A stretch of DNA of 32,000 nucleotides. Origin: Nitrospirales bacterium (lineage in GTDB: Bacteria; Nitrospirota; Nitrospiria; Nitrospirales; UBA8639). Under the pieces are notes generated by a model. That model was not told the origin of the DNA. It was given only the letters and a program-made list of their open reading frames with translations, and searched no databases. The DNA lies in contig OZ241988.1 in NCBI GenBank assembly GCA_965204475.1, positions 123,545-155,544 of the forward strand. Direction: 5' to 3'. Numbering within the stretch: the first letter of the stretch is position 1; each line of letters starts with the position of its first letter. The position numbers were made by a program, and so were the translations under genes. Below are positions 1 to 30,678 of this stretch, one piece after another.

Positions 1-772
1 TCAACGCGCGGCCGTCCTTGTAACGGGCGTGCATGAGTGCCTGCATGAAATCGTCGGGACAGGCCCCGGAACGCCGGCGTTGCGCCATGATCCGGCTGAA
101 GAGGTCGGCCACTCTTCGCCGGGCCCGGTCGCGGCTTCGATGCGCCGTGGTCGGAAGTCTGGGGAGAAAAAATCCCAGGGTGTTGATGCCTTTTTGCAGA
201 TCGTGATACGCCTCGGCAAAACCCGCGTCTATCTGATCCCGGACTTCCTGTCCAATGAGGCAGCGGCTGGCGATCCTGACGGTGAGCTCGTTCATCGCGA
301 CCGGCAGATCGATTTCCCCGTCCTCGCCGAGGGCGTCGGCGAACCACCTCGTCTCCTCGAACATGATGCGGGCAAACCTGCTCATCGCGGCTTCGCGGAG
401 CGCCGGAAACAGAAACCCCAGTTGCTCGTCCATGAGCTCGGGAGAGGCGTCATAAGCCACGCCGCGTCCGAAGATGGGAACAGTGAACTGATAGACGGCT
501 TTGGCGTTCAACTGATCCTCGGGCGCTCTGAAGTAAAAGTCGTGGGCTTCGGGTCCGGTGAAGAGCACAAACTGGCGGGGACCGAGCCGGAACCGGAAGA
601 GTTCGCCCTGCTCGCTCCAGCCGCGGCTCAACATCGAGATCGGATCCTTTAAAAAATCCGGCAGATGACCGATCAGCGGCCACCCGCCCGCGAGTTCGGG
701 AACGGCTTTGGCCGGCGGCGGCGAGAGCTGCGCCGAATGCGGGAGTGCTTCACTGTGAGACCGATGTGTCAT
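1..772 (-). CDS. cyp51: Sterol 14-alpha-demethylase (CYP51-family cytochrome P450), N-terminal ~257 codons; the gene continues past the left edge
   Basis: Missing from the ORF track because it has no stop in the window. Hand translation from the ATG at 772 (minus strand) stays open to position 2: MTHRSHSEALPHSAQLSPPPAKAVPELAGGWPLIGHLPDFLKDPISMLSRGWSEQGELFRFRLGPRQFVLFTGPEAHDFYFRAPEDQLNAKAVYQFTVPIFGRGVAYDASPELMDEQ...GEDGEIDLPVAMNELTVRIASRCLIGQEVRDQIDAGFAEAYHDLQKG... It carries the CYP51 B-prime/BC-loop signature Y-x2-F-x2-P-x-F-G-x-G-V-x-Y-D and is collinear with my recollection of M. tuberculosis CYP51 (FMTPIFGEGVVFDASPE; GEIDLLDFF..CLIGKKFRDQLD). The ATG lies 8 nt downstream of the sterol reductase stop. 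Confidence 0.85.
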   Translation of the reverse strand, partial: MTHRSHSEALPHSAQLSPPPAKAVPELAGGWPLIGHLPDFLKDPISMLSRGWSEQGELFRFRLGPRQFVLFTGPEAHDFYFRAPEDQLNAKAVYQFTVPIFGRGVAYDASPELMDEQLGFLFPALREAAMSRFARIMFEETRWFADALGEDGEIDLPVAMNELTVRIASRCLIGQEVRDQIDAGFAEAYHDLQKGINTLGFFLPRLPTTAHRSRDRARRRVADLFSRIMAQRRRSGACPDDFMQALMHARYKDGRAL

Positions 773-780
773 CCCTGTCC

Positions 781-1881
781 TCAAAAGACGCACGGCAGCA
801 TCGAATAACGCACCCGTTGCGTGTAGCGTTCCCACAACTCGCCGTACTTGGCGCGGCAACGGTGTTCATCACGTCTCGAACGATGCCACAACAGACCGGC
901 CAGCCACGCGGGCAACAGGTAGGGCGCCCAGGATTCGAACCCGGTGGTCAGGGTGAACGCGAGGTAAACGCAGATCTCGCCGGTATAGTTGAGATGCCGT
1001 CCAATACCCCAGAATCCGGAGACCAGCAGACGCCCGTCCAGGGACCGGGCGGGTTGTCCCCAAATCACGGCGTGGGGGTCACGCTTGAAGCGGTGTTTTT
1101 GCTCGTTGGCGCCGCGGAAGATCCAGAAGCCGAGGGCGAACAACAGGACGAGCGCGGCGGCGGCGACGGGAGACAGCGCTTCCGGAGCGTGGACCAGCCA
1201 CCAGCCGGCGAGGCAATAGAAAAACGGCACCAGCACGTAGTCTCCCCAAATCAACATCCATCCGAAGCGCTCACTGACGATGTCCCAGGTGTGGGTCATT
1301 CCGTATTCGAACTGGAAGTAGTTGAGCACGTACAGGAAGGTGAAGATCTGATAGAGCGCCATGGCCAGGGTCAGACCACCGTAGGTTTCGTACTGCACGA
1401 CGGCAAACGATGCGTTGAACAGCGCCAGGGCGATGAGGGACGGGCGGTAGCTGAAAAGCTTCAAATCCACCCCGAGCCAGGTCGGATTGAGCTCCACACC
1501 AAAGAAGAAACCCCGCCACGGTCCCGGTGGCGCATCCCGGGGCCGGGCTCCCCGCCAATACAGCCAGCCGGAAAGAGCGAAGGCGAATCCGTTTGTCACC
1601 ACGAACAAAGCGGCAAAGTGGCTATGCAGCACTGAAAGAGAAAACCAGCCGGAGACTTGGGCGAGACAGGCCACGGTCACGGTAATCAGGAATAAGGCAA
1701 GGCCGTTGAGCGTGTAGGTGGTTGATTGTCCTTCGACCTCCGGTCCGGTCACCCGCCGTCCGGGCAGGAGCATCGAACCCAGGAACAACGCGCCGACAAA
1801 CCCCGACACCATGGCCGCCGCCTCGAGCAGGGCGCCGCCCGACAGCGCGGACGACAGGACGTGCGGCTCAGGTCCCGGCAT
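781..1881 (-). CDS. ERG4/ERG24-family sterol reductase; C-14 reductase is favoured by adjacency to cyp51, but C-7 or C-24(28) specificity cannot be excluded
   Basis: 366 aa, polytopic and hydrophobic. C-terminal family signatures are LLVSGFWGIGRHLNYTGE and HRSRRDEHRCRAKYG, the latter matching R-x2-R-D-x3-C-x2-K-Y-G. Its start overlaps the upstream Rieske gene stop by 14 nt. Confidence 0.85.
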   Translation of the reverse strand: MPGPEPHVLSSALSGGALLEAAAMVSGFVGALFLGSMLLPGRRVTGPEVEGQSTTYTLNGLALFLITVTVACLAQVSGWFSLSVLHSHFAALFVVTNGFAFALSGWLYWRGARPRDAPPGPWRGFFFGVELNPTWLGVDLKLFSYRPSLIALALFNASFAVVQYETYGGLTLAMALYQIFTFLYVLNYFQFEYGMTHTWDIVSERFGWMLIWGDYVLVPFFYCLAGWWLVHAPEALSPVAAAALVLLFALGFWIFRGANEQKHRFKRDPHAVIWGQPARSLDGRLLVSGFWGIGRHLNYTGEICVYLAFTLTTGFESWAPYLLPAWLAGLLWHRSRRDEHRCRAKYGELWERYTQRVRYSMLPCVF

Positions 1882-2995
1882 CGCCGTTCTCCGTCCCGCG
1901 CGCCATGTACTCCCGCCACTTGCGCACGGTCACGTTTTGAAAAGCCCGTACCGCCGGATTGTACTCGATGGGAGGGGCGTCCCAATGTTGCTCGTAACCC
2001 TGCTGCTCCGCTTCGACCGCAACGCCGTCCTGGGCGAGTAACGGGCCGATGAGTACACGGTTCGAGATCTTCAACACCGCGGTCATGGCGAAACGGGGAA
2101 TATGTACCGGCAGCAAGGGCACCTTCAGTGACTTGAAGTAGAACAGGAAGAACGCCCGGGTGGTGCGCTCATCGATCGGGAGGACGAAAAGCCAGTGCTT
2201 GATCGCGTCATCGGTGTTCGACCACTGGTAGGGGTATTGATAGCACAGATCCATATGAGTGGTGTTGAGCCGGTTGTGATCGACAAACAGTCCGGAGATG
2301 CGTCCGCGACCGACCTGCGTATCGTAGGCCACGTGCACGTTGTCCCCGACGGTCTCGCACCGGGTCAGGACGGCGCCTTCTTCGAAGGGACGGTATTGAC
2401 GATGCAGGTGGGCGTGGGTGAAGTCGCTCACGTTGTCGATCACCATCGAGTGGTGGGCCGCCCAGGTGAAGACCAGCGGCTCACAGGCCCACCGCTCAGG
2501 GCCCTCGAGTTCGGGGATGTCCGGGATCCGGCGCAGTTCCGCTCGCTCCGGGTCCCCGGGGAACAACCAGACCAGACCGTAACGGACCTTCACGGGATAG
2601 GTTCTGAGCGGGAGCTTCGGAAGACCCCGTCCGTGGCGGTCGTGGGGGATCGCGACACAGCGCCCGTCGCCGTCGTACTGCCAGCCATGGTAGGCGCACA
2701 CGAGCCGGCAGCCTTGCACCTCGCCCATGGAGAGTTTGAGCTGGCGGTGCGCGCAGCGATTCTCGATCGCGTGAAACGAGCCGTCTTTCCCCCGGAAGAG
2801 CGCAATGGAATGTTTCCAGAAAATGACCTCGACCACCGTCCCCGGTTTGACCCGGCGCACCTCTTCAACCGCGTACCAATAATCCGGGTCCATGCCCGCG
2901 GCGCGGGCTTGCTGGCGCAAGCTGCCGGCCTCATCGAAGCCGGGTGGCGCACCCGGCGCCGGAATCACACTGAGTTTCCGTTTGGAGTTATCCAT
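1868..2995 (-). CDS. Rieske [2Fe-2S] non-haem iron oxygenase; candidate SdmA-like sterol C-4 methyl oxidase
   Basis: 375 aa. Rieske motif CAHRQLKLSMGE...LVCAYHGWQYD (C-x-H ... C-x2-H). DNVSDFTHAHLH resembles the mononuclear Fe(II) site. An 8-nt overlap (ATGGATAA) links it to the upstream dehydrogenase gene. Confidence 0.8.
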   Translation of the reverse strand: MDNSKRKLSVIPAPGAPPGFDEAGSLRQQARAAGMDPDYWYAVEEVRRVKPGTVVEVIFWKHSIALFRGKDGSFHAIENRCAHRQLKLSMGEVQGCRLVCAYHGWQYDGDGRCVAIPHDRHGRGLPKLPLRTYPVKVRYGLVWLFPGDPERAELRRIPDIPELEGPERWACEPLVFTWAAHHSMVIDNVSDFTHAHLHRQYRPFEEGAVLTRCETVGDNVHVAYDTQVGRGRISGLFVDHNRLNTTHMDLCYQYPYQWSNTDDAIKHWLFVLPIDERTTRAFFLFYFKSLKVPLLPVHIPRFAMTAVLKISNRVLIGPLLAQDGVAVEAEQQGYEQHWDAPPIEYNPAVRAFQNVTVRKWREYMARGTENGDAGT

Positions 2996-4112
2996 AGGCC
3001 CGGCTCGGAGAGAAATTGTCCACGGGTGTCGCGGCGGTCACGCACGGACGTTTCGCGAGCGGATTCGTGATCGCGTTGCGGTGGTAGTGAAAGGCGTAGG
3101 CCTCATGAACCGCAGCGCGGATACTGGTCGGCTGATAGCCGAGATCCCGTCTCGCTTTACCGACGTCGGCGTGCAAGCGTTTGCGCAACAGGCGAATGGC
3201 GCCCGGGGTGAAACGCTGGGGGAAGCTCGGGTGAAACCGGCTCAGATAAAAGCTCGTCATTTCCGAAAAAGCGAGCATCATGTTGGCCGGAATACGCCGG
3301 CACGGTCGCGGAACACCCGAGACCTCCTCGAACAGGTCCAGAATCTCGGAAATGGTTTTGTACTCGCTGCTGAAGATGTACTTTTCGCCCGAGCGTCCCA
3401 GGCGCATGCACAACAGGTGCCCTTCGACAATATCCCGCGACGCGACGAACTCGAACCCGCCGTCAACGTAAGCATGGAGCTTGCGGTTGCTGTAGTCACA
3501 CAAAGCTCTTCCCAATCGCGAGGGGAAAAAATCGGCGGGCCCGACCACGGCGCAGCACGTTGCCACCACGACATCCTGTCCCTTCGCCGCGGCGCGCCAG
3601 CACTCATGCTCGACAAGCGACTTGCTGCGCTCGTAGGGCATCGTGCGCTCCATGGGATAGAATTGCATCGTCTCGTTGGCGGGCGCGGACGGATTATCCA
3701 AATCGTACCCGACCGCACTGAAAGAGCCCGTCACCACCACCCGGCCGGCCCCTACCTCCCGCGCCGCTTGCAGCACGTTGCGGGTGCCGAGAACGTTGCA
3801 GTCGAACACTTCTCGGCGATGCGCGCGATTGCCTTCGATGGTCGAGATCTTGGCCGCGACGTGGTAGACGCCCTGACAGCCCTCAAGCGCACGCCGGGTT
3901 GCATCCAAATCCCGGATATCACCAAACCGGCGTTCAACGTCAAGACCTTCCAGTCCTTCGTTGTTGTCCTCGTGTCTCAGCAACACCCGGACCCGGACGC
4001 CGTCGTCGAGCAGCCGGCGCACCAGATTGGCGCCCACGTGCCCGGCCGATCCGGTGACGAAAACGGGCGGCGTCGATGCCCCGGCGGGTGTGCTCGATCC
4101 TGAGGTCATCAT
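2988..4112 (-). CDS. NAD(P)-dependent 3-beta-hydroxysteroid dehydrogenase/epimerase-family protein; candidate SdmB-like
   Basis: 374 aa. Rossmann motif VFVTGSAGHVGANLVRRLL and catalytic Y-x3-K (PYERSKS). Its start codon directly abuts the SMT stop (TGAATG). Confidence 0.8.
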   Translation of the reverse strand: MMTSGSSTPAGASTPPVFVTGSAGHVGANLVRRLLDDGVRVRVLLRHEDNNEGLEGLDVERRFGDIRDLDATRRALEGCQGVYHVAAKISTIEGNRAHRREVFDCNVLGTRNVLQAAREVGAGRVVVTGSFSAVGYDLDNPSAPANETMQFYPMERTMPYERSKSLVEHECWRAAAKGQDVVVATCCAVVGPADFFPSRLGRALCDYSNRKLHAYVDGGFEFVASRDIVEGHLLCMRLGRSGEKYIFSSEYKTISEILDLFEEVSGVPRPCRRIPANMMLAFSEMTSFYLSRFHPSFPQRFTPGAIRLLRKRLHADVGKARRDLGYQPTSIRAAVHEAYAFHYHRNAITNPLAKRPCVTAATPVDNFSPSRAYG

Positions 4113-5144
4113 TCAGTCTCCCGAGCGCCGGGGTTTACGGGCCACGAAGAAATACATCGGCGTAAAGACACCGGACCTGCCGCCTTCGACCAGCGCGTCC
4201 GCCGCCGCATTCAACAGCGTGCTGACCGCGCGGGCGCCTTCCGGAACCAACCGCAATTTCTCCCCAACCTGTAACGTCAAATTGGTCAAGGCGCGGCCGA
4301 TAGGTGTCCGCGGAATGCTCGAAAGACTGAGATCGCGACCCTGTAAAGCCCGGTACCATGGCGTTTCCGGATCCGATTCGGGGGCGAGGTCACGCGCTTC
4401 CAGAAGCTCGAATCCGGCCCTGCGCAATGCGGTGCAAACCTCCGATGTGAGGGCGATATCCGGTAACGCGTCCCCCACCATGATATCGTTCTTGATCCGC
4501 TGGTGCTCGGCGTTTCCCGGATCGAAAGTCTCGGTGAGACACCATTCGTAGCCCGCGAAACAAGCCCCCGGACGCAGAACGCGGAGAATTTCCCGGAACG
4601 CCGCTGTTTTGTCCGGCGCGTGGGGCATGGACTCGATGGCGAAGGCTGCATCGTAGTGGTTGTCACCTTCAAGAATCTGCATGTAATCGCCGTGGATGAA
4701 GCGGCACAACGACTGGACATCCCGGGTGTGTACCTTCGCGCGTTCGATCTGGTAGGGGTTGTTGTTGATACCGACAAAGCCGGCCCCGGAATAGCGGGCC
4801 AGATTGCCCATCGGCCCTCCTACCCCGCACCCCACGTCGAGCACTTGCATCCCCGGCTTCAGGGACAGCCGATCGGCGAGAAAATGCTGGTGCCTGAGCA
4901 GGGACGCTTTGAAGCTCTCGCCTTGGCGTCGGGGTGCAAAGTGAAAGGACTGACCCCAGCCGAACTCGTAGAAATCGGTCACCAGGTCGTAGTAGTGATT
5001 GACCAGCGATTGATAACGCTCTTTCCTGCTCTCCAGGCCGGCGTCGTAAATCCCGGAGTATTGATCGACCACGGATTTCACTTCATCCGGGGCCAGATCC
5101 GCGAGGGAACGAGAGTTGGATCGTTTGGCGGGCGTACGGCTCAT
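4113..5144 (-). CDS. Sterol C-24 methyltransferase (ERG6/SMT family), paralog 1
   Basis: 343 aa. Sterol-MT region I is YYDLVTDFYEFGWGQSFHFAPR. SAM motif I is VLDVGCGVGGPMG. The C-terminus GVFTPMYFFVARKP is typical of the sterol-MT C-terminal domain. Confidence 0.9.
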   Translation of the reverse strand: MSRTPAKRSNSRSLADLAPDEVKSVVDQYSGIYDAGLESRKERYQSLVNHYYDLVTDFYEFGWGQSFHFAPRRQGESFKASLLRHQHFLADRLSLKPGMQVLDVGCGVGGPMGNLARYSGAGFVGINNNPYQIERAKVHTRDVQSLCRFIHGDYMQILEGDNHYDAAFAIESMPHAPDKTAAFREILRVLRPGACFAGYEWCLTETFDPGNAEHQRIKNDIMVGDALPDIALTSEVCTALRRAGFELLEARDLAPESDPETPWYRALQGRDLSLSSIPRTPIGRALTNLTLQVGEKLRLVPEGARAVSTLLNAAADALVEGGRSGVFTPMYFFVARKPRRSGD

Positions 5145-5194
5145 TCGGCCATTTTTCCATATTCAGATGATTTAATCAAGAATAATGCTTTTTT

Positions 5195-5206
5195 TTGCAC
5201 TAGAAT
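5195..5206 (-). promoter_or_regulatory. Shared upstream motif TTGCACTAGAAT (plus-strand reading), copy 1, about 50 nt upstream of the SMT1 ATG
   Basis: The identical 12-mer recurs at 12399-12410, upstream of the GPP34-P450 gene. Both copies are followed by a TTAGGT(G)TAAA-like box (5209-5219 and 12421-12430). No function has been shown. Confidence 0.3.
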
Positions 5207-5214
5207 GGTTAGGT

Positions 5215-5312
5215 GTAAATCCCCGAGTACTGATCGACCACGGATTTCACTTGATCCGGGACCAGATCTGCAAGGGAAGGGAATTCGATCGTTTCGCGGG
5301 TGTGCGAGTGAT
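5215..5312 (-). pseudogene. Degenerate duplicated fragment of the SMT1 5-prime end (about the first 31 codons)
   Basis: 5215-5312 aligns with 5046-5144 at an offset of 169 nt. My hand count gives about 12 mismatches and one 1-nt gap over ~93 nt. The start codon is changed (ATG to ATC) and the frame is broken. Weaker similarity extends into upstream sequence (5145-5190 versus 5313-5362). Confidence 0.7.
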
Positions 5313-5372
5313 TCGAACATTTTGGTGGATTCGCAGGATTTTTTCAAGAGTAAAACATTGGGAATTATGCGC

Positions 5373-5401
5373 TTGACAAGGCCAAAGGGGGTCCATAGCA
5401 T
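5373..5401 (+). promoter_or_regulatory. Candidate sigma70-type promoter for the FAD-oxidoreductase gene
   Basis: TTGACA (5373-5378), 17-nt spacer, TAGCAT (5396-5401). An AGGGGG...CCCCCT inverted repeat brackets the -10 element. Confidence 0.4.
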
Positions 5402-5548
5402 TTGCCCCCTATGTTGTGGAAACACACAACGGTCCATCGGCGTACACCCCATTCCGGCACCGGACGAAATGGGCCCTGCTGAATGTCGTTAGAAACGGGC
5501 GCGGACGATGATAGAGTAGGGGCCATCAGCGAAACGAGGCACGCAGCG

Positions 5549-6907
5549 ATGCCGAAAAGGGTTGCCATTATCGGTGCGGGAGTCTCGGGACTGGGGGTGG
5601 CCTGGGCGCTGCATCAGCACCCCGATCGATTCGATTTTCGGCTGTTCGAAGCTCAGGCTCAGGTCGGCGGCAACGCCGTGACGGCCGACATGCCGCAAGA
5701 CGACGGCACCTCGATTCCGTTCGACATTTCCGTCACCGCGTGCATTCCCTCAGTCTACCACCACATTCTTCTGTTCATGCGGCAACACGGTATCGAGCTG
5801 GTCGATACCAGGTTCAGCTACAGCGTGAAGTACCAGGGCGGCGTCTATGCTCATGATTTCGACTCCGACATCAGGAGACAGTTGCAACCGGAAATCCAGA
5901 AATTCCAGAAGCTCCTGAGGCGTCTGAAATGGTTTGGCCGGCTCAACCGGTCCAGGTCCAGATTGCTCAATGCGCTCAACCCGTTCAACTACGTCAGCAT
6001 GGGTACGGTTCTCAACTTCGGCGGGTTCTCCGGAGATTTCAGGTACAAGATCCTGAAGCCCATGTTCGTCAACTTCCTGATGGCCACGAACGTGTTCGAC
6101 ATGCCCGCGTCCCTGTTTGCCCGGTATCTGGAGTTCTTCGATATTGAAACCGCAACGCCGATGCAAACCTGGGACCGGGGTACGCGGCGAATCTATGAAA
6201 ACATGTCGGCTGCCTTTCAGGACAAGATATACCTTAACCGACCGGTTCGAAAAGTGTACCGGCGTGCATCCGACGTCGTCGTAGAGGACGAGAACGGAAA
6301 CACGGAAACGTTTGATGACGTCGTGTTCTCGTGCAACGCGAATCAAACGCTGATGCTTCTGGATAAACCGGCCCTTCTGGAGCGCTGGATTCTCTCTTCG
6401 ATACGGTACGAGAGCGAACTGCACAACCACACGATCGTGCATTCGGACGCCTCGATTCTTCCGGACAACGAGGTCAAGCCGCTCGGCACCCGGAGCAACC
6501 ACATCGAGCAGTACGGTGTCCGACCCGACAACTACGAAATCACTTACATCATGCACAATCAGCAGCCTTGGGCGAATCGATCGGACAAACCGTGCCTGGT
6601 GACCTACAATCCGATCAGTCGTATCGACGAAGCCAAGATTGTCAAGAAGTGGTGGTTTCAGCACATCGTGCACGATGTGTCTCACATCGTCCTGCTGGTC
6701 CCGTTGTTTCGCTTCGTGCAAGGCAAACGGCGAACGTGGCACTGTGGCGCGCACACGCTGATCAACAGCCAGGAAACCTGTTTCGTGACCGGTCTTGTGA
6801 CAGCGAGACAGATCGGGGCGGACTATCCCTTTCAGGATTCCGAAGCCAGGAAATGGTTCAACTTCTACGGACGCGTGATGTACGGTTGGCGCTTGAGGAA
6901 GGCGTGA
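5549..6907 (+). CDS. NAD(P)/FAD-binding amine-oxidase-like oxidoreductase (COG2907-like)
   Basis: Dinucleotide-binding motif KRVAIIGAGVSGLGVAWAL...FEAQAQVGGN. I prefer the ATG at 5549 (GAGG lies 9 nt upstream) to the ORF-track start at 5483. The product is ~452 aa. Confidence 0.7.
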   Translation: MPKRVAIIGAGVSGLGVAWALHQHPDRFDFRLFEAQAQVGGNAVTADMPQDDGTSIPFDISVTACIPSVYHHILLFMRQHGIELVDTRFSYSVKYQGGVYAHDFDSDIRRQLQPEIQKFQKLLRRLKWFGRLNRSRSRLLNALNPFNYVSMGTVLNFGGFSGDFRYKILKPMFVNFLMATNVFDMPASLFARYLEFFDIETATPMQTWDRGTRRIYENMSAAFQDKIYLNRPVRKVYRRASDVVVEDENGNTETFDDVVFSCNANQTLMLLDKPALLERWILSSIRYESELHNHTIVHSDASILPDNEVKPLGTRSNHIEQYGVRPDNYEITYIMHNQQPWANRSDKPCLVTYNPISRIDEAKIVKKWWFQHIVHDVSHIVLLVPLFRFVQGKRRTWHCGAHTLINSQETCFVTGLVTARQIGADYPFQDSEARKWFNFYGRVMYGWRLRKA

Positions 6908-6998
6908 ACCAGAGCTTGCGCGGCGCGGCCCCGGTTTGGTGAGACAGTTCCCTGGCAGAATGACAACTTGGTTGTCCAAAGAGTGCAATTAACAGCAC

Positions 6999-7027
6999 TG
7001 GACTCGATGTCGTTGGTAAGCTATAGT
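6999..7027 (+). promoter_or_regulatory. Candidate promoter for the omp-Rieske2-SMT2 unit
   Basis: TGGACT (6999-7004), 17-nt spacer, TATAGT (7022-7027). It would give a ~120-nt leader containing nested stems (see findings). Confidence 0.35.
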
Positions 7028-7156
7028 ATCCTCGACCTGACAACCTGAGTGTCCCGGTTCCGCCGTATGGAAGCGGCGTGGAGTAAGAGGCTAGTGCCCC
7101 ACGCCTCGGGACACGATTCGGGAAAACAGCAGTCGAACTGAAAGCGAGGAGACGCC

Positions 7157-8071
7157 ATGAGACGTATTCCATACCGGACAATGATTCTTCAACGAATTTT
7201 TGTTGCGACGGTTGCCCTTGCCGTGTTTCTTCTGCCGGTGTTCTCACCCGATGCGCGCGCGTCGGAGCCGAGATGGTACGTCGGCTTGAGCGTCCCGGTC
7301 ATGTTCCTTGACGACTCGGAGAGCGTCACGAGCGGGACATCCCTTGGAAGCCAGTACAGCGCGAACGCCACCAACGAATACAAGGCGGGGTTCAAGGTCA
7401 GCGGCATGGTGGGCCGTGAATTCGGCAACGGCTTCCGTCTCCAGGTCGAAGGTTTCTTCGCCAGGGCCGATGTCAACAAGCTGACCTACAACGGGATCAC
7501 CTCTTCCGCGTTGCAGGGTGTCGATATTGAGGACGTGAACATCCCCGTGTCCGGCCCGGCAGACCAATTGGGCGCCATGGTGAACGTCTGGTACGACTTC
7601 AATGAAGGCTCCCGCTGGAGACCCTTCATCGGCGGCGGCCTGGGCTTCGTCCAGGTCGATTGGGGCGGCGTGGATTATGAAGTTGGTGCGCTCGAGCAAT
7701 CGATTGCGAACCAGACTGCGCTCGCTGGCGCGCTTCAACATGCACAAGCCATGGGCTTACCTCCGGGCGCCCCCCTGCCTCAAGCGGCCAGAGATGCGGC
7801 ACTGGCCCAGGCCCAACTGCCCCCGGGGACTGTGCCAGACCTTTCCGGCACCGATACGGTGTTCGCCTTTAAGGTCGGCGGGGGACTGGGCTACGAGCTC
7901 ACCAATCACATTACCCTCCAGGTCAGCTACCGCTTCTTCAAAACCAACCAGTTGGAGTTCAACGGCAGGAATGCTATTGAGGTCATGGGTAATACGGTGG
8001 TCAATACGGTCAAGGCGACGTCCGATTTGCAAGGTCATCTCTTCGAGGTGGGTGTACGCTATCGTTTCTAG
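7157..8071 (+). CDS. Outer-membrane beta-barrel protein (OmpA-like/OMP_b-brl family) with signal peptide
   Basis: 304 aa. GAGGAG lies 5 nt upstream of the ATG. The signal peptide ends in ARA/SE. The body has alternating beta-strand-like segments and a C-terminal aromatic residue (...FEVGVRYRF). Confidence 0.75.
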   Translation: MRRIPYRTMILQRIFVATVALAVFLLPVFSPDARASEPRWYVGLSVPVMFLDDSESVTSGTSLGSQYSANATNEYKAGFKVSGMVGREFGNGFRLQVEGFFARADVNKLTYNGITSSALQGVDIEDVNIPVSGPADQLGAMVNVWYDFNEGSRWRPFIGGGLGFVQVDWGGVDYEVGALEQSIANQTALAGALQHAQAMGLPPGAPLPQAARDAALAQAQLPPGTVPDLSGTDTVFAFKVGGGLGYELTNHITLQVSYRFFKTNQLEFNGRNAIEVMGNTVVNTVKATSDLQGHLFEVGVRYRF

Positions 8072-8111
8072 GTACATCCTGCCGGGCCAAGGAGTGCGAT
8101 AGCGGATACCC

Positions 8112-9140
8112 ATGACAGCCGGTCGAGACGAGCGCCTCCCCTCGCTTTCTCCCTTTCCGGAAGGCTGGTTCTTTGTCGCCGGCCGCAAGACGATCGAAAA
8201 GGCGAAGTTGGTCAAAAAAACCTGGATGGGCGAACAGATCGTTGTATGGTGCGACGAGGAAGGACGCATCTGTGTGGCCGAGGCGGTCTGTGCGCACATG
8301 GGTTCCGACCTGGGGCCGGAAGCCGGGGGCCGCGTGCGCAACGGCTGCCTCGTCTGCCCGTTCCACGGCTTCCAGTACGATGTCACCGGCCAATGCGTGG
8401 CCACGCCCTACGCGTCGGCGCCCAGGACCGCCAGGCTGAAGGTCTTCCACACGCGTGAAATCCTGGGTCTGGTTTTTGGCTGGTGGGGCATTGACGGACG
8501 GCCGCCGCAATGGGAGCTGCCGGAAGCGCCGCCGACCGGAGACGACTGGTGCGATTTGGATTTCTGGAGCGTCCGGGTCCCGGGGCATCCCCAGGAAACG
8601 ACCGAGAACTCCGTGGACCTGGGCCATCTGCGCTACGTGCACGGCTACAGCAGCGTGAACGCGATCGGTTCGGTGTCAATCGACGGCGCCTACCTCAAGA
8701 GTTGCTTCGACTTCAAGCGAACCCAGACCATCGCCGGGATCAAGGTCTTCGCGTATGATGTTTCCGCGGTCACCCACGTGTACGGGTTGGGCTATTCGTT
8801 CGTCGAGGTTCACGAGCGTGCGATCGACATGCAGACGCGTTTGTGGGTGCTGGCTACGCCCATCGACGGCAGACTCGTCGAACTGGTGCTGGTCAGCCAC
8901 GTGCGGCGAATCCTGAGACCGAAGCGGCCAATCGTGGGCATGCGCTTCCTGCCGTCACGCCTGCGCACCAGGCTCATGAACAAGATCATCATGGCGGCTC
9001 AAAAGCGGGATGTCATGCAGGACGTCGTGATCTGGGGCCGAAAACACTATCGGCCCCGCCCCATTTTATGTCGCTCGGACGGGGAGATTGGAACGTATCG
9101 GCGTTATTGCGAGCAATTCTATCCGGATCGTCCGGATTGA
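8112..9140 (+). CDS. Rieske [2Fe-2S] non-haem iron oxygenase, paralog 2 (Neverland/KshA-like architecture)
   Basis: 342 aa. Rieske motif CAHMGSDLG...LVCPFHGFQYD. Fe(II) motif ENSVDLGHLRYVH (D-x2-H-x4-H). Confidence 0.8.
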   Translation: MTAGRDERLPSLSPFPEGWFFVAGRKTIEKAKLVKKTWMGEQIVVWCDEEGRICVAEAVCAHMGSDLGPEAGGRVRNGCLVCPFHGFQYDVTGQCVATPYASAPRTARLKVFHTREILGLVFGWWGIDGRPPQWELPEAPPTGDDWCDLDFWSVRVPGHPQETTENSVDLGHLRYVHGYSSVNAIGSVSIDGAYLKSCFDFKRTQTIAGIKVFAYDVSAVTHVYGLGYSFVEVHERAIDMQTRLWVLATPIDGRLVELVLVSHVRRILRPKRPIVGMRFLPSRLRTRLMNKIIMAAQKRDVMQDVVIWGRKHYRPRPILCRSDGEIGTYRRYCEQFYPDRPD

Positions 9141-9172
9141 TTTCAGACAGAGGTGAAAGGGGACACCACGCC

Positions 9173-10207
9173 ATGCGACTAGGCAAACTATCGAACTGGC
9201 TGAAGGATGCGTACCGGGAAGAGGACGTCACCCGTCAGGTGCAACACTTCGACGGCTGGATCGATCGGGCGAAGCCGGAGGATGTCGTCGCGAGCCGGTA
9301 CGATCACACCGAAACGGTGAAAGAGTACTACGATCTCTGCAGCCCATTCATGGTCTACGGTTGGGGTGAATCCCTGCACTTCGCGCCCCTTACGCCTTGG
9401 GAGAGTCTGGAGGACTCCAAAGTCCGGCATCAGCGGTTGATGATCGCCAAGCTGGAGTTGCACCCGGGCATGACAATCGTCGATGTCGGGTGCGGCGTCG
9501 GCGGCCCGATGCGCCGGGTCGTCCGGGAGGCCGGTGTCCGGGTTGTCGGGATCAACATCAATCAAATCCAGTTGGCGAACGCGAAACGGGAGAACTCCGA
9601 GGCGGGGCTCGACCACATGGTCGATTACGAGGCGTGCAGCTTCATGGACATGAGCGCCATCAAAGACGAGACGTTCGACTGCGGTTATGCCATGGAGTCA
9701 ACGTGCCACGCGCCGGACAAGGAACGCGCGTTCGCGGAGATATTCCGGGTGCTGAAACCCGGAGCCCTGTTCTGGGGTCAGGAAATGTGTCTGACGGACA
9801 AGTACGATCCGAACGACAGCCGGCACCGGGCCATCAAGCGGGATCTCATGCATGGCATTGCGCTGCAGGACATTGCGACGTTCGGGGAAGTGAATCATGC
9901 GCTCGAAGCGGCGGGATTCCACGTCATCGAGGAGATGGACCGGGACGTCCAGGAGGGACCATCCACACCATGGTATCAACCCATGGAGACACGGCATGGG
10001 ACCCTCGGTAACGCCTTGTGCAGGCTTCCATGGGGCCGCAAAGTATTTATGGCGGGATCGAAGCTGGCCGAGGTGCTGCGGCTGTTTCCGAAGGGCTCCG
10101 CGGAGGTTGTCCGCCTCATGGATCGGACCGCGGAGGCCTACGTCGCGGGCGGCAAGTCGGGGATCTTCACGCCGTTGTACTGTTTTCTAGCCCGCAAACC
10201 CCTTTAG
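9173..10207 (+). CDS. Sterol C-24 methyltransferase (ERG6/SMT family), paralog 2
   Basis: The ATG at 9173 (MRLGKLSNW...) is preceded by AGGTGAAAGGGGA. The ORF-track start at 8843 would overlap the Rieske gene. Motifs: YYDLCSPFMVYGWGESLHFAP, IVDVGCGVGGPM, and C-terminal GIFTPLYCFLARKP. Confidence 0.88.
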   Translation: MRLGKLSNWLKDAYREEDVTRQVQHFDGWIDRAKPEDVVASRYDHTETVKEYYDLCSPFMVYGWGESLHFAPLTPWESLEDSKVRHQRLMIAKLELHPGMTIVDVGCGVGGPMRRVVREAGVRVVGININQIQLANAKRENSEAGLDHMVDYEACSFMDMSAIKDETFDCGYAMESTCHAPDKERAFAEIFRVLKPGALFWGQEMCLTDKYDPNDSRHRAIKRDLMHGIALQDIATFGEVNHALEAAGFHVIEEMDRDVQEGPSTPWYQPMETRHGTLGNALCRLPWGRKVFMAGSKLAEVLRLFPKGSAEVVRLMDRTAEAYVAGGKSGIFTPLYCFLARKPL

Positions 10208-10256
10208 ATCCTTATCCCCAAAGTCTCTCCGGTGATTGGCTATTTTTTCTTCGAGC

Positions 10257-10281
10257 TTTCCCGGAACAGGCCGGCGGGAAA
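10257..10281. terminator. Weak bulged hairpin between the convergent SMT2 and P450 genes
   Basis: TTTCCCGG-aacagg-CCGG(cgg)GAAA. There is no clear U-tract. Confidence 0.2.
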
Positions 10282-10328
10282 ACTTGTTGGACCGCAGTGG
10301 AGGGGCAGGGAAATGACCGGCTGGCGCG

Positions 10329-12356
10329 TCAGACGGGCAGTTCGCGCCTCCGCTCCGCGATGCGGAACTTCAGCTTCTTGCTGGGCTTCATCGACGGAAG
10401 GGGGTCGAACCGAAGCTTGTAGTTCTCGGGAGCTACCTCGATCGTGAAGTAATGCGCGACCATCAGCACGTTGACGGCCAATTGCAGTTCCAGCCACCGG
10501 GAGCCGAGACACGTGTGCGTGCCCAGCCCGAACGGGGCGTACCCGGGCTTGAGGTGCTCATTGCGCGGAGGCAGATACCGGTCGATATCGAATGTGAAGG
10601 GGTCGGGAAAGACGTCTTTCATGTAATGCGTGGCCGTCTGGGCAATATAGATGTTTGTCCCGACCGGCAGTTCGTAGTCCTCGACCACGCACGCATTCAT
10701 CACGGTTCGAATAGACATCGGGACGATCGGGTACATGCGCAGGCACTCCATGAGGAAGCGGTGCGTGACGTCAAGTGCGGACAGGGTGAAGTCCTCGGCA
10801 TCAGGGTCGCCGCTGTCGAACAGGGCATCGGCTTCATTCTGGATTTTGGCATAGAACTCGGGCTGCGACGCCATGGCGTACAACGCAAAGCTGAACGCAT
10901 CGCCAAGGTACACGCTGGCGATCAGCGCTGCTGAAAGCTGGAAGCGCAACGTCGTCTCCGGCACGAACTGCGGATCGCTTGCGTGCAGGCTGAGCCAGTC
11001 GTCCGCAAGGTTCCGTGGAGAACCAGCACGCTGCGCGGGTGTATGGACGCTCTGGATCCGTTCCAGCAGCGTATCCACGGCTTTCGCCCGGCGTCTCATG
11101 CCCGGAGTTTTCAGCATGAACTTGGGCAGCATCTTCACAATGTGGACGAGGAGTGCTCGTTCCTTATACTTCGCCAGATCGTCAAAGATATCCTGAGAAT
11201 CAACGCTGACAAAGAGCGGTGAGAGCTGCGCGTTGACCATCTGCCGGCTCATGTTCGTCGCAGTATAGGAGTCTCCGACCGTCCAATTCGCCATGTGATT
11301 TCTGGCATGATGATAGAGTTGGTCCAACTGCCCTTCCAGTCTTCTGCGGGAATACGCCGCCGACATGGACTTGCGAAGCCGGAAATGATCGGCGCCGTCC
11401 AAGGAAGGCATTACTCCGGACGCGCCGTAGACCTTCTCGAAGTCATTAAAATAGTCCTTGGTTCTCAGGTACATGCGCCCGCGCTTATGCGCCCAGCGGT
11501 TTGTCTCGGACCCGGCCAGAAAGATCATGGGCTTCGCAAACGGCGGGCGGATCTCGAACACCGGGCCATACTCTTGCGCAAGGTCCGCAAAGAGCGCGGG
11601 AATGTTGCCCTTGCGCACATGTGGACTGAGCAGCACTTTATGTAGCGAAGCAGTCGGAATCTTCTTGGTCAGGGCGGAATGTCGAAGCAAGGGGCCGGCC
11701 AAGTTGTGGGAGACCGCATCGGCGATGGACCGGCCGATCAAATCCATCTTACAGATGAGCCGGATGCGCTCTTCCGACTCCTCATCGAGTTGGAATATGA
11801 AGCGGAAGACGTCGCACGTATTGACGAGGCAAATAACGATGATGTCTCTCGGATCGGGAATCTCGTTCATGAAGATGGCCCTGCTGATCCGCGTTTTGAC
11901 GAACTGACCTGCAGTGCCTTCAGGGGAGTTGCCGTACCGTTCCGTCTGCCAGCCGGTATGAGCCAGCGTCCAGAACTCGCCGTCGTGGTATTCCAGGATC
12001 TTCAGGTTGACCAAACGATCCAGAGTCAAATCAATGACTGATTCCGCACGGGGGGCGAGCCGTTCAATCCAGAACTGTGTGCTTCGTTGAATTGGTTCGC
12101 TTGCAATCTCTTTCAGAATGGGGTCCAGGGCGGGGTCGCCCGTTTCTGTCGGGTCCACGAGGAACAGAGATTCCATGTCCGTGTCGATGCGCGACAGGAG
12201 GGAGAGTTCCGCGAGTACTGCGCCGGCGACGGCGCAGTTCAAATCCCAGCCGGGTACTTGGTGAAAGTATCCGTTCTCCTCGTTGAGGAGCATCAGGATG
12301 AGCTCTTCGGGCAAACTGAGCGTTTGGGTCGTCAAACCCTCTTTAGTCACAGCCAT
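10329..12356 (-). CDS. Fusion protein: N-terminal GPP34/GOLPH3-family domain (~residues 12-215) plus C-terminal cytochrome P450 (~residues 240-675)
   Basis: 675 aa. The N-terminus, LSLPEELILMLLNEENGYF...AVAGAVLAELSLLSRI...LDRLVNLKILE, is typical of GPP34. The P450 part has YGPVFEI, the ExxR motif (ECLRMYP) and the haem-thiolate loop FGLGTHTCLGSRW. Confidence 0.8.
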   Translation of the reverse strand: MAVTKEGLTTQTLSLPEELILMLLNEENGYFHQVPGWDLNCAVAGAVLAELSLLSRIDTDMESLFLVDPTETGDPALDPILKEIASEPIQRSTQFWIERLAPRAESVIDLTLDRLVNLKILEYHDGEFWTLAHTGWQTERYGNSPEGTAGQFVKTRISRAIFMNEIPDPRDIIVICLVNTCDVFRFIFQLDEESEERIRLICKMDLIGRSIADAVSHNLAGPLLRHSALTKKIPTASLHKVLLSPHVRKGNIPALFADLAQEYGPVFEIRPPFAKPMIFLAGSETNRWAHKRGRMYLRTKDYFNDFEKVYGASGVMPSLDGADHFRLRKSMSAAYSRRRLEGQLDQLYHHARNHMANWTVGDSYTATNMSRQMVNAQLSPLFVSVDSQDIFDDLAKYKERALLVHIVKMLPKFMLKTPGMRRRAKAVDTLLERIQSVHTPAQRAGSPRNLADDWLSLHASDPQFVPETTLRFQLSAALIASVYLGDAFSFALYAMASQPEFYAKIQNEADALFDSGDPDAEDFTLSALDVTHRFLMECLRMYPIVPMSIRTVMNACVVEDYELPVGTNIYIAQTATHYMKDVFPDPFTFDIDRYLPPRNEHLKPGYAPFGLGTHTCLGSRWLELQLAVNVLMVAHYFTIEVAPENYKLRFDPLPSMKPSKKLKFRIAERRRELPV

Positions 12357-15018: not shown

Positions 15019-16323
15019 GTGCCGACCCAACGAAAGGACCAGAGCCGCATGGGTCGGGTAGGCAAGCCGGACTTGCTCCTTCCGGCATTGAACGCCTTAT
15101 CGACGCTGGAATCGCACAATAGGTCGAACGTGAACCCTAACCGCGGTTTTGCGCTGGTGGCGGTTCTGTTGTTGATGGCCGTCGTGGGGATCGTCACGGC
15201 GACGGTTCTGCAGACGACCTCGACGGAAATCCAAATCAGTGCGAATCACAAGCAGGCGGTGCAGGATTTGTACGCCGCCGAGGCCGGCTTGGCGGAAGCC
15301 CGGTCGCGTTTACGGAAGACGACGGGAACCGACATCTATTTCATCGAGGACAGGGCGGTGTCGCCTGATCCGTTGTGGACTGCCTACATCGTGGAGTCTG
15401 CAGATTGGTTGCCGTCCGTTGACCCCGAGTATTCTCCGCATGCGACGAATCTGATTCCTCTTCCGGGTCATGCAGCCAATACGGTGGTGCAGCCCAACAG
15501 TTTGCAGACGGAACTGCCTTACTGGGTGAAGATCCGGCATAAAACCGAACAGGGCAACGTGGTCTACTTCGGATACCCCTCGTCGACGGACACCATTCCG
15601 GTCTCCTTCACGACAAATACACCCACACCGTGGTTGCCCATCGAGAAGATCATCGCCCATGGAGCCACTACCGGAGGGACCGTGGTTCTGGAGGAAGAAG
15701 TGGTGCATCCCCCGGGCCCGAACCAGCTCGGGGCGCTTCATGCGTTCGGAGACGTCAGCCTCGCGGGCTCGCCGGGCGAGATCGATGGCCAAGACTTTTG
15801 TGGTAGCGTCGGCAATCTGCCACCCGTCGTGTATGGAGGAACCTTCACGAGCAACCCGGCGATTCATTTCGACGGAACGCCTGCGAGTCCTCAGCACAGT
15901 GCCCACGTGCCCGATCCTGCCTCCGCGCTCGCCGCGCTGAAGACGGGCGCGATGGTGTTGAGTCACGATCAAATCAATCAGCATTTGGGAACCGCGCTGG
16001 TCCCCATGACGTTTTTTGCGGAAGGCGGATTGTTTGCCCAACCGCAGGGAATCCGTATCCGGCAAACCAGGGGATTCGGGGTTCTCTTAGTGGACGGGAA
16101 TGCCACTTTGGAAGGCGAGGTCCTCTGGAACGGCATGATCCTGGTGACCGGCACGTTGTTTCTCAACGGTCAGGGTAGTGAAATCGTGATTCGCGGAGGG
16201 GTCTGGGCGGGTGCGATCGACCATCAGGCGGGACCATTAAGGGTCTGGTACGACAGTTGCCTCCTGCGAGACGCGCTGCTGGCTGTCCCGACGCAGGTAA
16301 TCACGTGGAGGGAAATTTTTTAA
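15019..16323 (+). CDS. PilX-like (type IV pilus minor pilin/assembly, PilX_N-type) protein
   Basis: N-terminal hydrophobic helix RGFALVAVLLLMAVVGIVTATVLQTTSTEIQISANHKQ followed by AAEAGLAEARSRL. The C-terminal region is glycine-rich and beta-like (GFGVLLVDGNATLEGEVLWNGMILVTG). The start is uncertain; an in-frame GTG at 15130 is an alternative. Confidence 0.6.
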   Translation: MPTQRKDQSRMGRVGKPDLLLPALNALSTLESHNRSNVNPNRGFALVAVLLLMAVVGIVTATVLQTTSTEIQISANHKQAVQDLYAAEAGLAEARSRLRKTTGTDIYFIEDRAVSPDPLWTAYIVESADWLPSVDPEYSPHATNLIPLPGHAANTVVQPNSLQTELPYWVKIRHKTEQGNVVYFGYPSSTDTIPVSFTTNTPTPWLPIEKIIAHGATTGGTVVLEEEVVHPPGPNQLGALHAFGDVSLAGSPGEIDGQDFCGSVGNLPPVVYGGTFTSNPAIHFDGTPASPQHSAHVPDPASALAALKTGAMVLSHDQINQHLGTALVPMTFFAEGGLFAQPQGIRIRQTRGFGVLLVDGNATLEGEVLWNGMILVTGTLFLNGQGSEIVIRGGVWAGAIDHQAGPLRVWYDSCLLRDALLAVPTQVITWREIF

Positions 16324-26699: not shown

Positions 26700-26966
26700 C
26701 TAGATGGAAGCAACCTTTTCGGACAGCCAGACCTTAATCAGTGACTGGTAAGGGACATCCCTCTTATTGGCCTCGGTCTTGATTTTCTCAAGCAGACCAA
26801 CCGGCAATCTTAGGGAAATCGGCTTGGTAGACGGTTTGAGATTGGGAAAACGGACGCGTTGGGCCTTGCTCCAGTCCACGTGGTCGGTCGAGTCGTGACT
26901 TTCCCAAAAGACCCGTTCTTTTCCCTCGCTTGCGAAGGTGGGAATCGATTTACGTTTCCTGTTCAT
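26700..26966 (-). CDS. brnA: BrnA-type (CopG/RHH-like) antitoxin, apparently orphan
   Basis: 88 aa. The family-typical string is FWESHDSTDHVDWSKAQRVRFPNLKPSTKPISLRLPVGLLEKIKTEANKRDVPYQSLIKVWL. No intact DUF497/BrnT ORF lies upstream. Confidence 0.8.
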   Translation of the reverse strand: MNRKRKSIPTFASEGKERVFWESHDSTDHVDWSKAQRVRFPNLKPSTKPISLRLPVGLLEKIKTEANKRDVPYQSLIKVWLSEKVASI

Positions 26967-27043
26967 AGCGGTCTCGCTCCTTGCGGCTCATCATAAACAC
27001 AACGCATCAAGGAAATCCACTGTGATCCGCGTTCTTCAACCTC

Positions 27044-30112: not shown

Positions 30113-30187
30113 GTCCTCTATTTCTCCTCTCCTCTTGTGGGAGAGGTCCGGGGTGAGGAGGGAAATTGTCAAGAAGTGAGTGAAGTC

Positions 30188-30487
30188 ATGACGGATGAAC
30201 AGATTGTCGAGCGCATACGCGCGCAATTGGGCCAGACCGGGGCCGTGGACGAGGTGTCGGTCAAGGGAGACCTGCTTCAACTGCACGTGACCGAGGAGTT
30301 TTACCGGCGGTTGGCCGTGGATCGGGATCGCGGCAGAAAGATCGTGCTGATGTTGATGCAGCAGATGAAGTCGTTGACGGGGCTCCAGGACGTGACCGTG
30401 AGAGTGTACAGTCAAAATGAAAAGCTGATCGAAGGCAAAGTCAAGGCGTTCGGGGGAGATAATGTCGCGTACATGTTGGACTTGTAA
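30188..30487 (+). CDS. Hypothetical protein (~99 aa)
   Basis: Open frame with native-looking GC. I prefer the ATG at 30188 (MTDEQIVERIRAQL...) to 30137. I recognise no motif. Confidence 0.45.
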   Translation: MTDEQIVERIRAQLGQTGAVDEVSVKGDLLQLHVTEEFYRRLAVDRDRGRKIVLMLMQQMKSLTGLQDVTVRVYSQNEKLIEGKVKAFGGDNVAYMLDL

Positions 30488-30510
30488 GGTTGGAAGCCGG
30501 TTTTTTGGGA

Positions 30511-30678
30511 TCACCCCCGTTGCTTACCTCCGATGTAGTCAAACAATACCTGTTTTGTGGTGAAAGAAGCACGAGACGGCAGGGGTTCGACGTTTTGGAG
30601 TTCGATAATAAATGAGCGATCATCATACTCCATGATCGGAAAGCCTTTTCCCTTCAGGTGGGCTACCACGTCTTTCAT
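30511..30678 (-). CDS. Small hypothetical protein (55 aa), below the ORF-track size cut-off
   Basis: AAGGAG lies 8 nt upstream of the ATG at 30678. Translation: MKDVVAHLKGKGFPIMEYDDRSFIIELQNVEPLPSRASFTTKQVLFDYIGGKQRG. It shows only a vague YcfA/HicA-like N-terminal pattern. Confidence 0.4.
   Translation of the reverse strand: MKDVVAHLKGKGFPIMEYDDRSFIIELQNVEPLPSRASFTTKQVLFDYIGGKQRG

Follow-up and report, generated by a model that had tools for sequence, protein, structure and literature searches.

The window analysed here, meaning the whole stretch of 32,000 nucleotides (nt) at positions 123,545-155,544 of the forward strand of contig OZ241988.1 (Nitrospirales bacterium, GCA_965204475.1), very probably contains a locus for sterol biosynthesis from a member of the Nitrospirales associated with sponges or corals, in which genes of a core pathway stand next to an accessory module that would modify the sterol further. 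Window proteins were assigned to families by Pfam, NCBIfam, and PDB sequence searches. The original prediction had listed ten sterol-pathway or sterol-related genes, and their strands and four gene junctions were reproduced from the open reading frame (ORF) listing and translation. Profile searches returned the P450, ERG4_ERG24, Rieske, 3Beta_HSD, Sterol_MT_C, and GPP34 domains that had been proposed for them.

Core sterol operon and the fused cyclase beside it

Five genes on the minus strand form the core. Since the window ends within the first of them, we used L001, a 35-kb low-coverage ENA contig from a near-identical strain, to stand in for the sequence to the left. Its DNA is 96-99.7% identical to that of the window, and it carries the sterol reductase described below at 100% identity. 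An exact-protein look-up of the reductase yielded this contig only, and such look-ups of the SdmA and SdmB proteins (see below) yielded no record.

The sterol 14α-demethylase CYP51 (Pfam p450) occupies positions 1-772 (−), where the left window edge truncates it to the N-terminal 257 codons. Hallmarks of CYP51 are the B′-helix signature Y-x2-[FL]-x3-P-x-F-G-x2-V-x-[FY]-D and the I-helix sequence GQHTS. The former is present in the window fragment as AVYQFTVPIFGRGVAYD, and the complete orthologue on L001, of 469 amino acids (aa), contains AGQHTS. When this orthologue was searched against PDB, only CYP51s were found down to E = 2.9e-55 (best, 4e-105), and the first P450 of another kind appeared at 5e-39. 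The next gene, at 781-1881 (−), encodes a Δ14-sterol reductase of the ERG24 type (Pfam ERG4_ERG24, 245 bits), whose best PDB match is the solved bacterial delta(14)-sterol reductase 4quv (2e-70).

Two genes that had been called 'Rieske' and '3b-HSD-like' follow. The domains were found as expected, but the pair is better named after the bacterial C-4 demethylase proteins SdmA and SdmB, to which its sequences assign it. The predicted SdmA-like Rieske oxygenase (C-4 methyl oxidase) is encoded at 1868-2995 (−; NCBIfam NF052579; Pfam Rieske and VanA_C) and the predicted SdmB-like NAD(P)-dependent short-chain dehydrogenase/reductase (SDR; C-4 decarboxylase/ketoreductase) at 2988-4112 (−; NCBIfam NF052578; Pfam Epimerase and 3Beta_HSD). 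NF052579 and NF052578 were by far the top NCBIfam models for the Rieske protein and the SDR, respectively, and the two genes overlap inside a sterol cluster.

The first gene of the minus-strand unit, at 4113-5144, encodes the sterol C-24 methyltransferase SMT1 (Pfam Sterol_MT_C, 6e-23, with S-adenosylmethionine (SAM)-dependent methyltransferase domains). The region-I motif of sterol methyltransferases (SMTs) of this type is YEFGWG.SFHF, and SMT1 reads YEFGWGQSFHF. With the SMT that occupies this position on contig L005, which belongs to a metagenome-assembled genome (MAG) of a coral Nitrospirales, it shares 84% identity, and with that of the assayed Petrosia ficiformis contig LXNJ01014139, 80%. 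Packing of the five genes is tight: SMT1 and SdmB abut as TGA/ATG (ctgaATGatg in the sequence), SdmB and SdmA overlap by 8 nt, SdmA and ERG24 overlap by 14 nt, and a gap of 8 nt separates ERG24 from CYP51. The order SMT1-SdmB-SdmA-ERG24-CYP51 thus forms a single, probably translationally coupled operon.

Squalene epoxidase and oxidosqualene cyclase had been expected beyond the left edge, and both were seen there on L001, as one gene. It overlaps CYP51 by 4 nt and encodes a squalene epoxidase (SMO) domain followed by an oxidosqualene cyclase (OSC) domain. No stop codon interrupts the common frame of the two in seven independent loci, which rules out an assembly error as the origin of the fusion. 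The protein from a Thermodesulfobacteriota chromosome (L039), 1133 aa in length, carries Pfam SE, SQHop_cyclase_N, and SQHop_cyclase_C. All of these proteins have the layout of an MsbE-type bifunctional epoxidase/cyclase. The cyclase motif of L001 is PVTDCTAE, comprising the catalytic DCTAE and a valine at position −2, which we presume, from Summons-type residue rules, to mark the lanosterol-synthase type. On these residues we take the fused cyclase to be a putative lanosterol synthase.

Accessory genes and their linkage across phyla

Divergently from SMT1, four genes run on the plus strand, and a fifth on the minus strand follows them. The last, at 10329-12356 (−), encodes a GPP34 (GOLPH3-like) domain fused to a cytochrome P450 (GPP34-P450; Pfam GPP34 1e-27, p450 8e-38). 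Its heme-cysteine motif is normal (FGLGTHTCLG), its I-helix reads LGDAFS, and its nearest solved P450s are CYP51s, which are distant (3e-19). SMT2, a second SMT paralogue at 9173-10207 (+; Pfam Sterol_MT_C 9e-16, CMAS 4e-17), is 43% identical to SMT1 and has the variant region-I motif MVYGWGESLHF.

The gene at 8112-9140 (+) encodes Rieske2, a KshA-like Rieske non-heme-iron oxygenase (Pfam KshA_C 3.6e-26, 93 bits, and Rieske). KshA, the oxygenase of 3-ketosteroid 9α-hydroxylase, is its best match in sequence (PDB, 4e-28) and in fold (top Foldseek matches, template modelling (TM) score 0.66), at an identity of only ~24%. The motifs CxH..CxxH and D-x2-H-x4-H and the residues D300/D304 are invariant in 16 homologues, and the ligand set of a KshA-type monooxygenase domain is present (C60/H62/C82/H85, D169/H172/H177, and D300/D304). 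No KshB reductase or catabolic genes were found in the window or the inspected loci, a setting different from the catabolic one of KshA. Because the gene sits with methyltransferases, a role of Rieske2 as a biosynthetic hydroxylase or desaturase is more likely.

FADox, at 5549-6907 (+), is a flavin adenine dinucleotide (FAD)-dependent oxidoreductase of the amine-oxidase fold (Pfam Amino_oxidase, 3e-17). Its ORF opens at 5483, and 5549 is the likely start as judged from homologues of 452-460 aa. LkcE is the closest PDB match (3.5e-22, full length), and the Propionibacterium acnes polyunsaturated fatty acid isomerase 2b9w matches at 1.8e-8. Orthologues in MAGs of several phyla are 84-91% identical. 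Full-length alignments, at 27-28% identity and with E values down to 3e-35, also connect FADox with FAD oxidoreductases of sigmaE-ChrR-FADox-DUF1365 operons, of which one that we inspected also has a cyclopropane fatty acid synthase. Such a gene neighbourhood is that of UfaD and UfaO in bacterial furan fatty acid synthesis. UfaD is an O2-dependent desaturase that is specific for the methyl-branched olefin made by the CMAS-family methylase UfaM and acts next to the methyl branch (Lemke et al. 2020, PMC7380195). The likeness lies in the pairing of a CMAS-family SAM methyltransferase with an amine-oxidase-fold flavoprotein. However, no DUF1365 protein (UfaO), ChrR, or sigmaE is encoded in the window, so FADox does not belong to a UfaD-type operon, and its presumed substrate is a sterol side chain rather than an acyl chain. 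UfaD is therefore used here as a working analogy and not as a statement of membership.

Between FADox and Rieske2, a gene at 7157-8071 (+) encodes an outer-membrane beta-barrel protein (OMP; Pfam OMP_b-brl, 9e-14). The divergent intergenic region between SMT1 and FADox (5145-5548) has promoter-like sites on both strands, at 5373-5401 on the plus strand (10/12 matches) and at 5347-5319 on the minus strand. It also holds one copy of a 64-nt direct repeat with 91% identity (5046-5109 and 5215-5278). The copy at 5215-5278 is a duplicate of SMT1 codons 12-33, located 169 nt upstream of the original. The same duplicate of the SMT1 fragment was seen as off-diagonal blastn matches in L001, L004, and L005, and it may be a recombination scar where the core genes meet the accessory module. 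We do not count a 103-aa ORF at 5141-5452 as a gene, since it has no Pfam match and spans the intergenic region with the duplicated fragment.

To place the accessory genes, the GPP34-P450 alignment was scanned against species-representative genomes. Orthologues were found in at least 569 of them, and the best 80 loci, in which every GPP34-P450 was 74-94% identical to the window protein, were analysed by mapping the window proteins onto them and counting partners within 10 kb of GPP34-P450. These 80 loci fall into nine named lineages: Chloroflexota (52), Latescibacterota (8), Nitrospirales (7), Gemmatimonadota (5), Binatia (3), Verrucomicrobiota (2), and Thermodesulfobacteriota, Rhodothermaceae, and Spongiisociaceae (1 each). 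A Rieske2-type partner was present in 59/80 loci, an SMT2-type in 52/80, and a FADox-type in 39/80. At least one of the three accompanied GPP34-P450 in 69/80, and all three did so in 29/80. The accessory genes occurred in at least four different orders, and in Binatia-type loci FADox came directly after GPP34-P450 with a gap of a few nt. Databases hold more than 1,700 relatives for each of GPP34-P450, Rieske2, and FADox, and in all three cases the top 120 have identities of 67-91%. The GPP34-P450 architecture itself is broader, as dozens of 50%-identity cluster representatives align with it end to end at 27-42% identity.

These counts bear on the possibility that FADox, OMP, Rieske2, and GPP34-P450 are unrelated neighbours, the pathway consisting of the six canonical sterol-signature genes only. 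None of the four has a characterised orthologue in a sterol pathway, and the Nitrospirales loci L044 and L055 retain the core and GPP34-P450 without FADox, Rieske2, and SMT2. OMP does behave as such a neighbour might: the cluster includes a homologue in L001 and in 4 of the 7 genome loci from Nitrospirales, but in none of the loci from other phyla among the 80. For the others, however, the linkage of GPP34-P450 to SMT2, Rieske2, and FADox types recurs in nine lineages despite the changes of gene order, whereas in a genome of several Mb any one gene would be expected to fall within 10 kb by chance in well under 1% of cases. The close placement of FADox behind GPP34-P450 in Binatia-type loci points the same way. 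We therefore regard the explanation by unrelated neighbours as quite improbable. Accordingly, the sterol-related status proposed at the outset for the accessory genes was borne out for FADox, Rieske2, SMT2, and GPP34-P450 by conserved cross-phylum linkage, but not for OMP, which is linked only within the Nitrospirales.

Transporter genes accompany the accessory genes in most lineages. A transporter of the resistance-nodulation-division (RND) superfamily lay within 10 kb of GPP34-P450 in 70/80 loci, of the MMPL type in Chloroflexota, where homologues were present in 50/52 loci, and of the AcrB type in diderm phyla. A Dehalococcoidia operon encodes SMT2, MMPL with Patched/sterol-sensing-domain matches, Rieske2, a major facilitator superfamily (MFS) transporter, an LppX-like lipoprotein, and FADox. 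In L008 (13107-15590, −) and similar Chloroflexota loci, the MMPL protein with these matches has 827 aa and is encoded between SMT2 and Rieske2; the operon also encodes an MFS transporter and an LppX_LprAFG lipoprotein. A second GPP34-P450 paralogue, ~31% identical, was observed at 7773-9797 of L039 and near 5152 of L020, in both cases directly upstream of the main GPP34-P450 and beside a split-looking AcrB-type pump. A study of Methylococcus capsulatus reportedly describes an RND-type sterol transporter and BstABC transport.

Taken together, GPP34-P450, FADox, Rieske2, and SMT2 appear to form a conserved, horizontally spread module that is undescribed: a literature search for GPP34 together with P450 and sterol in bacteria found no account, and no description of the module was found. 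We infer that the module tailors and exports sterols. Its carriers are probably sponge and coral symbionts.

Host, residence, and relation to published clusters

To the right of GPP34-P450, Pfam identified a monomeric icd, aclB, aclA, acn, an Fe-S protein and a flavoprotein, and sucC/sucD, confirming the icd, aclBA, acn, and sucCD genes originally named as neighbours. With aclB and aclA accompanied by icd, acn, and sucCD, the locus has the gene set of the reductive tricarboxylic acid (rTCA) cycle of the ATP-citrate lyase (ACL) type found in Nitrospirales. Members of the aclA cluster are named ATP citrate lyase [Nitrospira sp.], and aclA is 97-98% identical in Nitrospirales MAGs. The 90% protein clusters of the window proteins include Nitrospira sp. 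SB06xx bins, which are sponge MAGs, and the closest species genomes are Nitrospirales MAGs. When metagenomes were scanned with SMT1, matches of at least 70% identity lay almost all on contigs with the prefixes of the sponge metagenomes of Brown et al., including JGIcombinedJ30088, Ga0209021 (Aplysina aerophoba), and LXNJ (P. ficiformis). These findings suggest that the host is a sponge- or coral-associated Nitrospirales with an ACL-type rTCA cycle, and the original view, that a Nitrospira-like organism of the ACL type carries a cluster for making and tailoring sterols, was thus upheld.

In base composition the sterol genes resemble the adjacent core genes, as had been judged by eye. The G+C content at third codon positions (GC3) was 0.755 ± 0.025 in sterol genes and 0.744 ± 0.008 in core genes (Mann-Whitney p = 0.56). 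Relative synonymous codon usage of the two sets correlated at 0.90, compared with 0.93 for two halves of the core set. The cluster adjoins icd or acl in 7/7 Nitrospirales species loci, with its internal order rearranged in some, and a neighbour-joining tree of GPP34-P450 places the Nitrospirales sequences in a monophyletic group.

The same data address the explanation that the sterol genes are eukaryotic host DNA, or were mis-assembled onto a Nitrospira contig, which could be entertained because the enzymes are eukaryote-like and the source is probably a holobiont metagenome. Yet GC3 and codon usage match those of the flanking acl, icd, and suc genes, the gene overlaps are operon-like and introns are absent, and SdmA and SdmB are of a bacterial type. 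Moreover, the adjacency of sterol and acl genes recurs in independent assemblies, including Mb-scale Nitrospirales chromosomes, and a 2.26-Mb contig is on record with exactly these proteins. Composition and repeated contiguity with acl genes effectively refute eukaryotic contamination, and we consider its probability negligible.

Residence in the lineage does not mean that the cluster arose there. The DNA of the sterol genes is 81-89% identical to copies on multi-Mb chromosomes of Thermodesulfobacteriota (L039) and Binatia (L043), and the Nitrospirales locus L055, at 87%, is no closer. At the protein level, the window ERG24 is 87% identical to those of the L039 and L043 phyla versus 83% to those of two Nitrospirales. 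The view that the cluster is resident rather than recently acquired was thus supported by composition and by the icd/acl synteny conserved in Nitrospirales, but has to be qualified by these inter-phylum identities. As judged from these sequence comparisons, the cluster is long resident in the Nitrospirales lineage and yet drawn from a pool of inter-phylum horizontal transfer. This agrees with Kelly et al. (2022, PMC9531527), who described the 'CSG' cluster from symbionts belonging to ten phyla, Nitrospiria among them, and presented evidence that it is transferred horizontally and is under purifying selection.

Among related Nitrospirales (L006, L015, L044, and L055) the tailoring part varies between species: some of them have two SMTs without FADox and Rieske2, and others only GPP34-P450, OMP, and SMT1. 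In L006, L015, and L044, the core has the opposite orientation with respect to acl.

The window is a further member of a published cluster type (msb, 'CSG', and 'Nitrospira MAG'), and its new part is the four-gene accessory module. A cluster of this kind in such an organism had been thought unusual, a view that the literature contradicts. In the sheet 'Nitrospira MAG' of Supplementary Data 1 of Brown et al. (2023, PMC10070321), consecutive IMG genes are listed, beginning with one that matches both ERG1 and ERG7 and continuing with CYP51, ERG24, sdmA, sdmB, SMT, three unnamed gene numbers, and a second SMT. Lee et al. (2023, PMC10202945) likewise count nitrospirae among the carriers, as do Kelly et al. 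for Nitrospiria. Contig L005 (Nitrospirales isolate Plut_88904, JAAXIB010000027.1) is probably that very Nitrospira MAG contig. The gene order of the Nitrospira MAG and L005 is that of the window from the SMO/OSC fusion to the second SMT, and GPP34-P450 and icd/acl come next on L005. The proteins of L005 and the window share 84-98% aa identity (OMP, 58%) and the DNA ~90%; the window belongs to another species or strain. The published sheet names canonical homologues only, and the three intervening genes and GPP34-P450 are not among the homologues listed there.

Both SMTs of the Nitrospira MAG were assayed in vitro, according to the same paper (PMC10070321), in which 'Nitrospira 1 of 2', the one adjoining sdmB, converted desmosterol to sterol II, (epi)codisterol. 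Activity of the SMT1 type is thus shown in related clusters, and a corresponding activity is predicted from sequence for the window SMT1. The position of SMT1 can be linked to that of the propylating A. aerophoba SMT (JGIcombinedJ30088_10000835) by gene order only. For the C-4 demethylase pair, the paper gives identities of 46.6% and 43.8% between the Nitrospira MAG SdmA and SdmB and MCA1016/1017 of M. capsulatus, and of 52.9% between its SdmB and that of Calothrix. In the same source, the Nitrospira MAG SdmB is closer to the SdmB of Calothrix and Enhygromyxa (51-53%) than to that of M. capsulatus (44%). Calothrix SdmA/B take off both C-4 methyls (PMC10202945).

Two other systems offer comparison. 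The msb locus, from a gammaproteobacterium symbiotic with Melophlus sarasinorum (Mohanty et al. 2020, PMC7074536), and the 'CSG' of Ircinia symbionts (PMC9531527) have a core in common with the window, namely the overlapping SDR/Rieske genes, sterol reductase, CYP51, bifunctional squalene epoxidase/cyclase, and SMT. They differ in that their SMT lies on the opposite strand beside the cyclase, whereas SMT1 of the window heads the operon and an accessory module is attached to the window cluster. The host phylum is also a different one. M. capsulatus has the CYP51 closest to that of the window among solved structures and is the source of the SdmA/SdmB reference proteins. Unlike the window cluster, it has neither an SMT nor an SMO-OSC fusion, and the window proteins do not reach the NCBIfam cut-offs of the Methylococcus type.

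Further features of the window lie outside the sterol cluster. A 434-aa PilX_N-domain protein is encoded at 15019-16323, between icd and aclB in the rTCA gene block. Between sucD and an M24 peptidase lies a low-GC islet (26700-28177; 0.40 versus ~0.59) with genes for a CopG-type antitoxin (PF12441, 1.3e-32) and for a protein with a NERD domain. In codon usage the latter gene shows no correlation with the rest of the window (r = −0.07), so the islet is probably a recent insertion. The right end (30100-32000) has a GC content of 0.45-0.51 and short ORFs only, and three ORFs scanned there had no Pfam matches. Scans of the window for tRNAs and Rfam families gave no matches.

Proposed pathway, host sterols, and implications

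Gene identities, order, fusion, and cross-phylum linkage are observed directly; on them the following route can be proposed, in which the order of steps and all accessory functions are inferred. The fused squalene epoxidase/lanosterol synthase would form the tetracycle, CYP51 and the ERG24-type reductase would remove the C-14 methyl, SdmA and SdmB would remove the C-4 methyls, presumably with complete C-4 demethylation, and SMT1 would methylate the side chain at C-24. The accessory module, OMP not included, would then modify the sterol further, most likely in its side chain. Through oxidation or desaturation, the substrate of SMT2 would be made ready or processed, and the product would afterwards pass to the cell envelope. 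By analogy with UfaD, FADox may desaturate or otherwise process the methylated side chain, for SMT2 or after it, while the KshA-like oxygenase and the P450 may supply hydroxylation or desaturation steps. The GPP34 domain may tether the P450 to lipid, and a transporter, for which OMP is the candidate in Nitrospirales, may carry the product into the envelope.

Several results weigh against this reading. The SdmA and SdmB scores (407 bits, 4e-122, for NF052579; 293 bits, 4.5e-87, for NF052578) are below the curated equivalog cut-off of 600 in both cases, cut-offs that appear to be tuned to Methylococcus-type sequences. In the window and L001, no genes were seen for squalene synthase, Δ8-Δ7 isomerase, C-5 desaturase, Δ7 or Δ24 reductases, or ferredoxin/reductase partners of the P450s and Rieske proteins. 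For FADox, AlphaFold gave an unusable model, with a predicted local distance difference test (pLDDT) score of 35. An RND transporter accompanies none of the Nitrospirales copies of GPP34-P450 (0/7). Furthermore, according to the legend of Fig. 3 of Brown et al. (PMC10070321), some SMTs of such clusters were inactive on desmosterol and 24-methylenecholesterol. Finally, a core sterol gene lay within 10 kb of GPP34-P450 in just 9/80 loci, and since the other 71 have none nearby, the module need not act on a self-made sterol.

The last point also speaks for the main rival to the tailoring of self-made sterol, namely that the accessory genes and transporter act on sterols of the host sponge, in uptake, modification, or the first catabolic steps. 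The KshA-like oxygenase resembles the opening step of actinobacterial steroid catabolism, and the P450 and flavoprotein are reminiscent of the same stage. Genes of steroid catabolism have reportedly been found in sponge metagenomes. Methylation of host sterols by Chlamydiae is discussed in a passage of Brown et al. (PMC10070321). On the other side, a SAM-dependent SMT is a biosynthetic enzyme, and no ring-cleavage, beta-oxidation, or KshB genes were found in the inspected loci. Export of envelope lipids is the typical function of RND/MMPL proteins that occur with LppX-like lipoproteins, which also speaks against uptake and breakdown. Moreover, Nitrospirales, Thermodesulfobacteriota, and Binatia carry the module directly alongside the genes for de novo synthesis. 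Action on host sterols is thus rather unlikely as the explanation of the accessory genes, and we favour a core sterol pathway whose product the module modifies.

A more specific version of sterol tailoring can be offered as a tentative idea, possible but short of probable. The Nitrospirales genes would be the local copy of an undescribed, horizontally exchanged sterol tailoring-and-export module of hundreds of symbiont species, in which side-chain double bonds intended for SMT2 would arise from, or be processed by, the flavoprotein, the oxygenase, and the membrane-targeted P450. Unconventional side chains would result, for example through extra C-26 or C-24 methylation or cyclopropyl formation. 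Sterols with such side chains are currently ascribed to the sponge host and used as animal biomarkers.

Bacterial methylation of the side chain bears on the use of 24-isopropylcholestane and 26-methyl steranes from Neoproterozoic rocks as an early record of sponges. This point has already been recognised in the literature for the cluster, and to it the window adds only another Nitrospirales example. If the module does tailor sterols, its enzymes would be concrete candidates for making the unusual sterols of sponges with high microbial abundance, and the origin of the biomarker precursors would become testable by heterologous expression.

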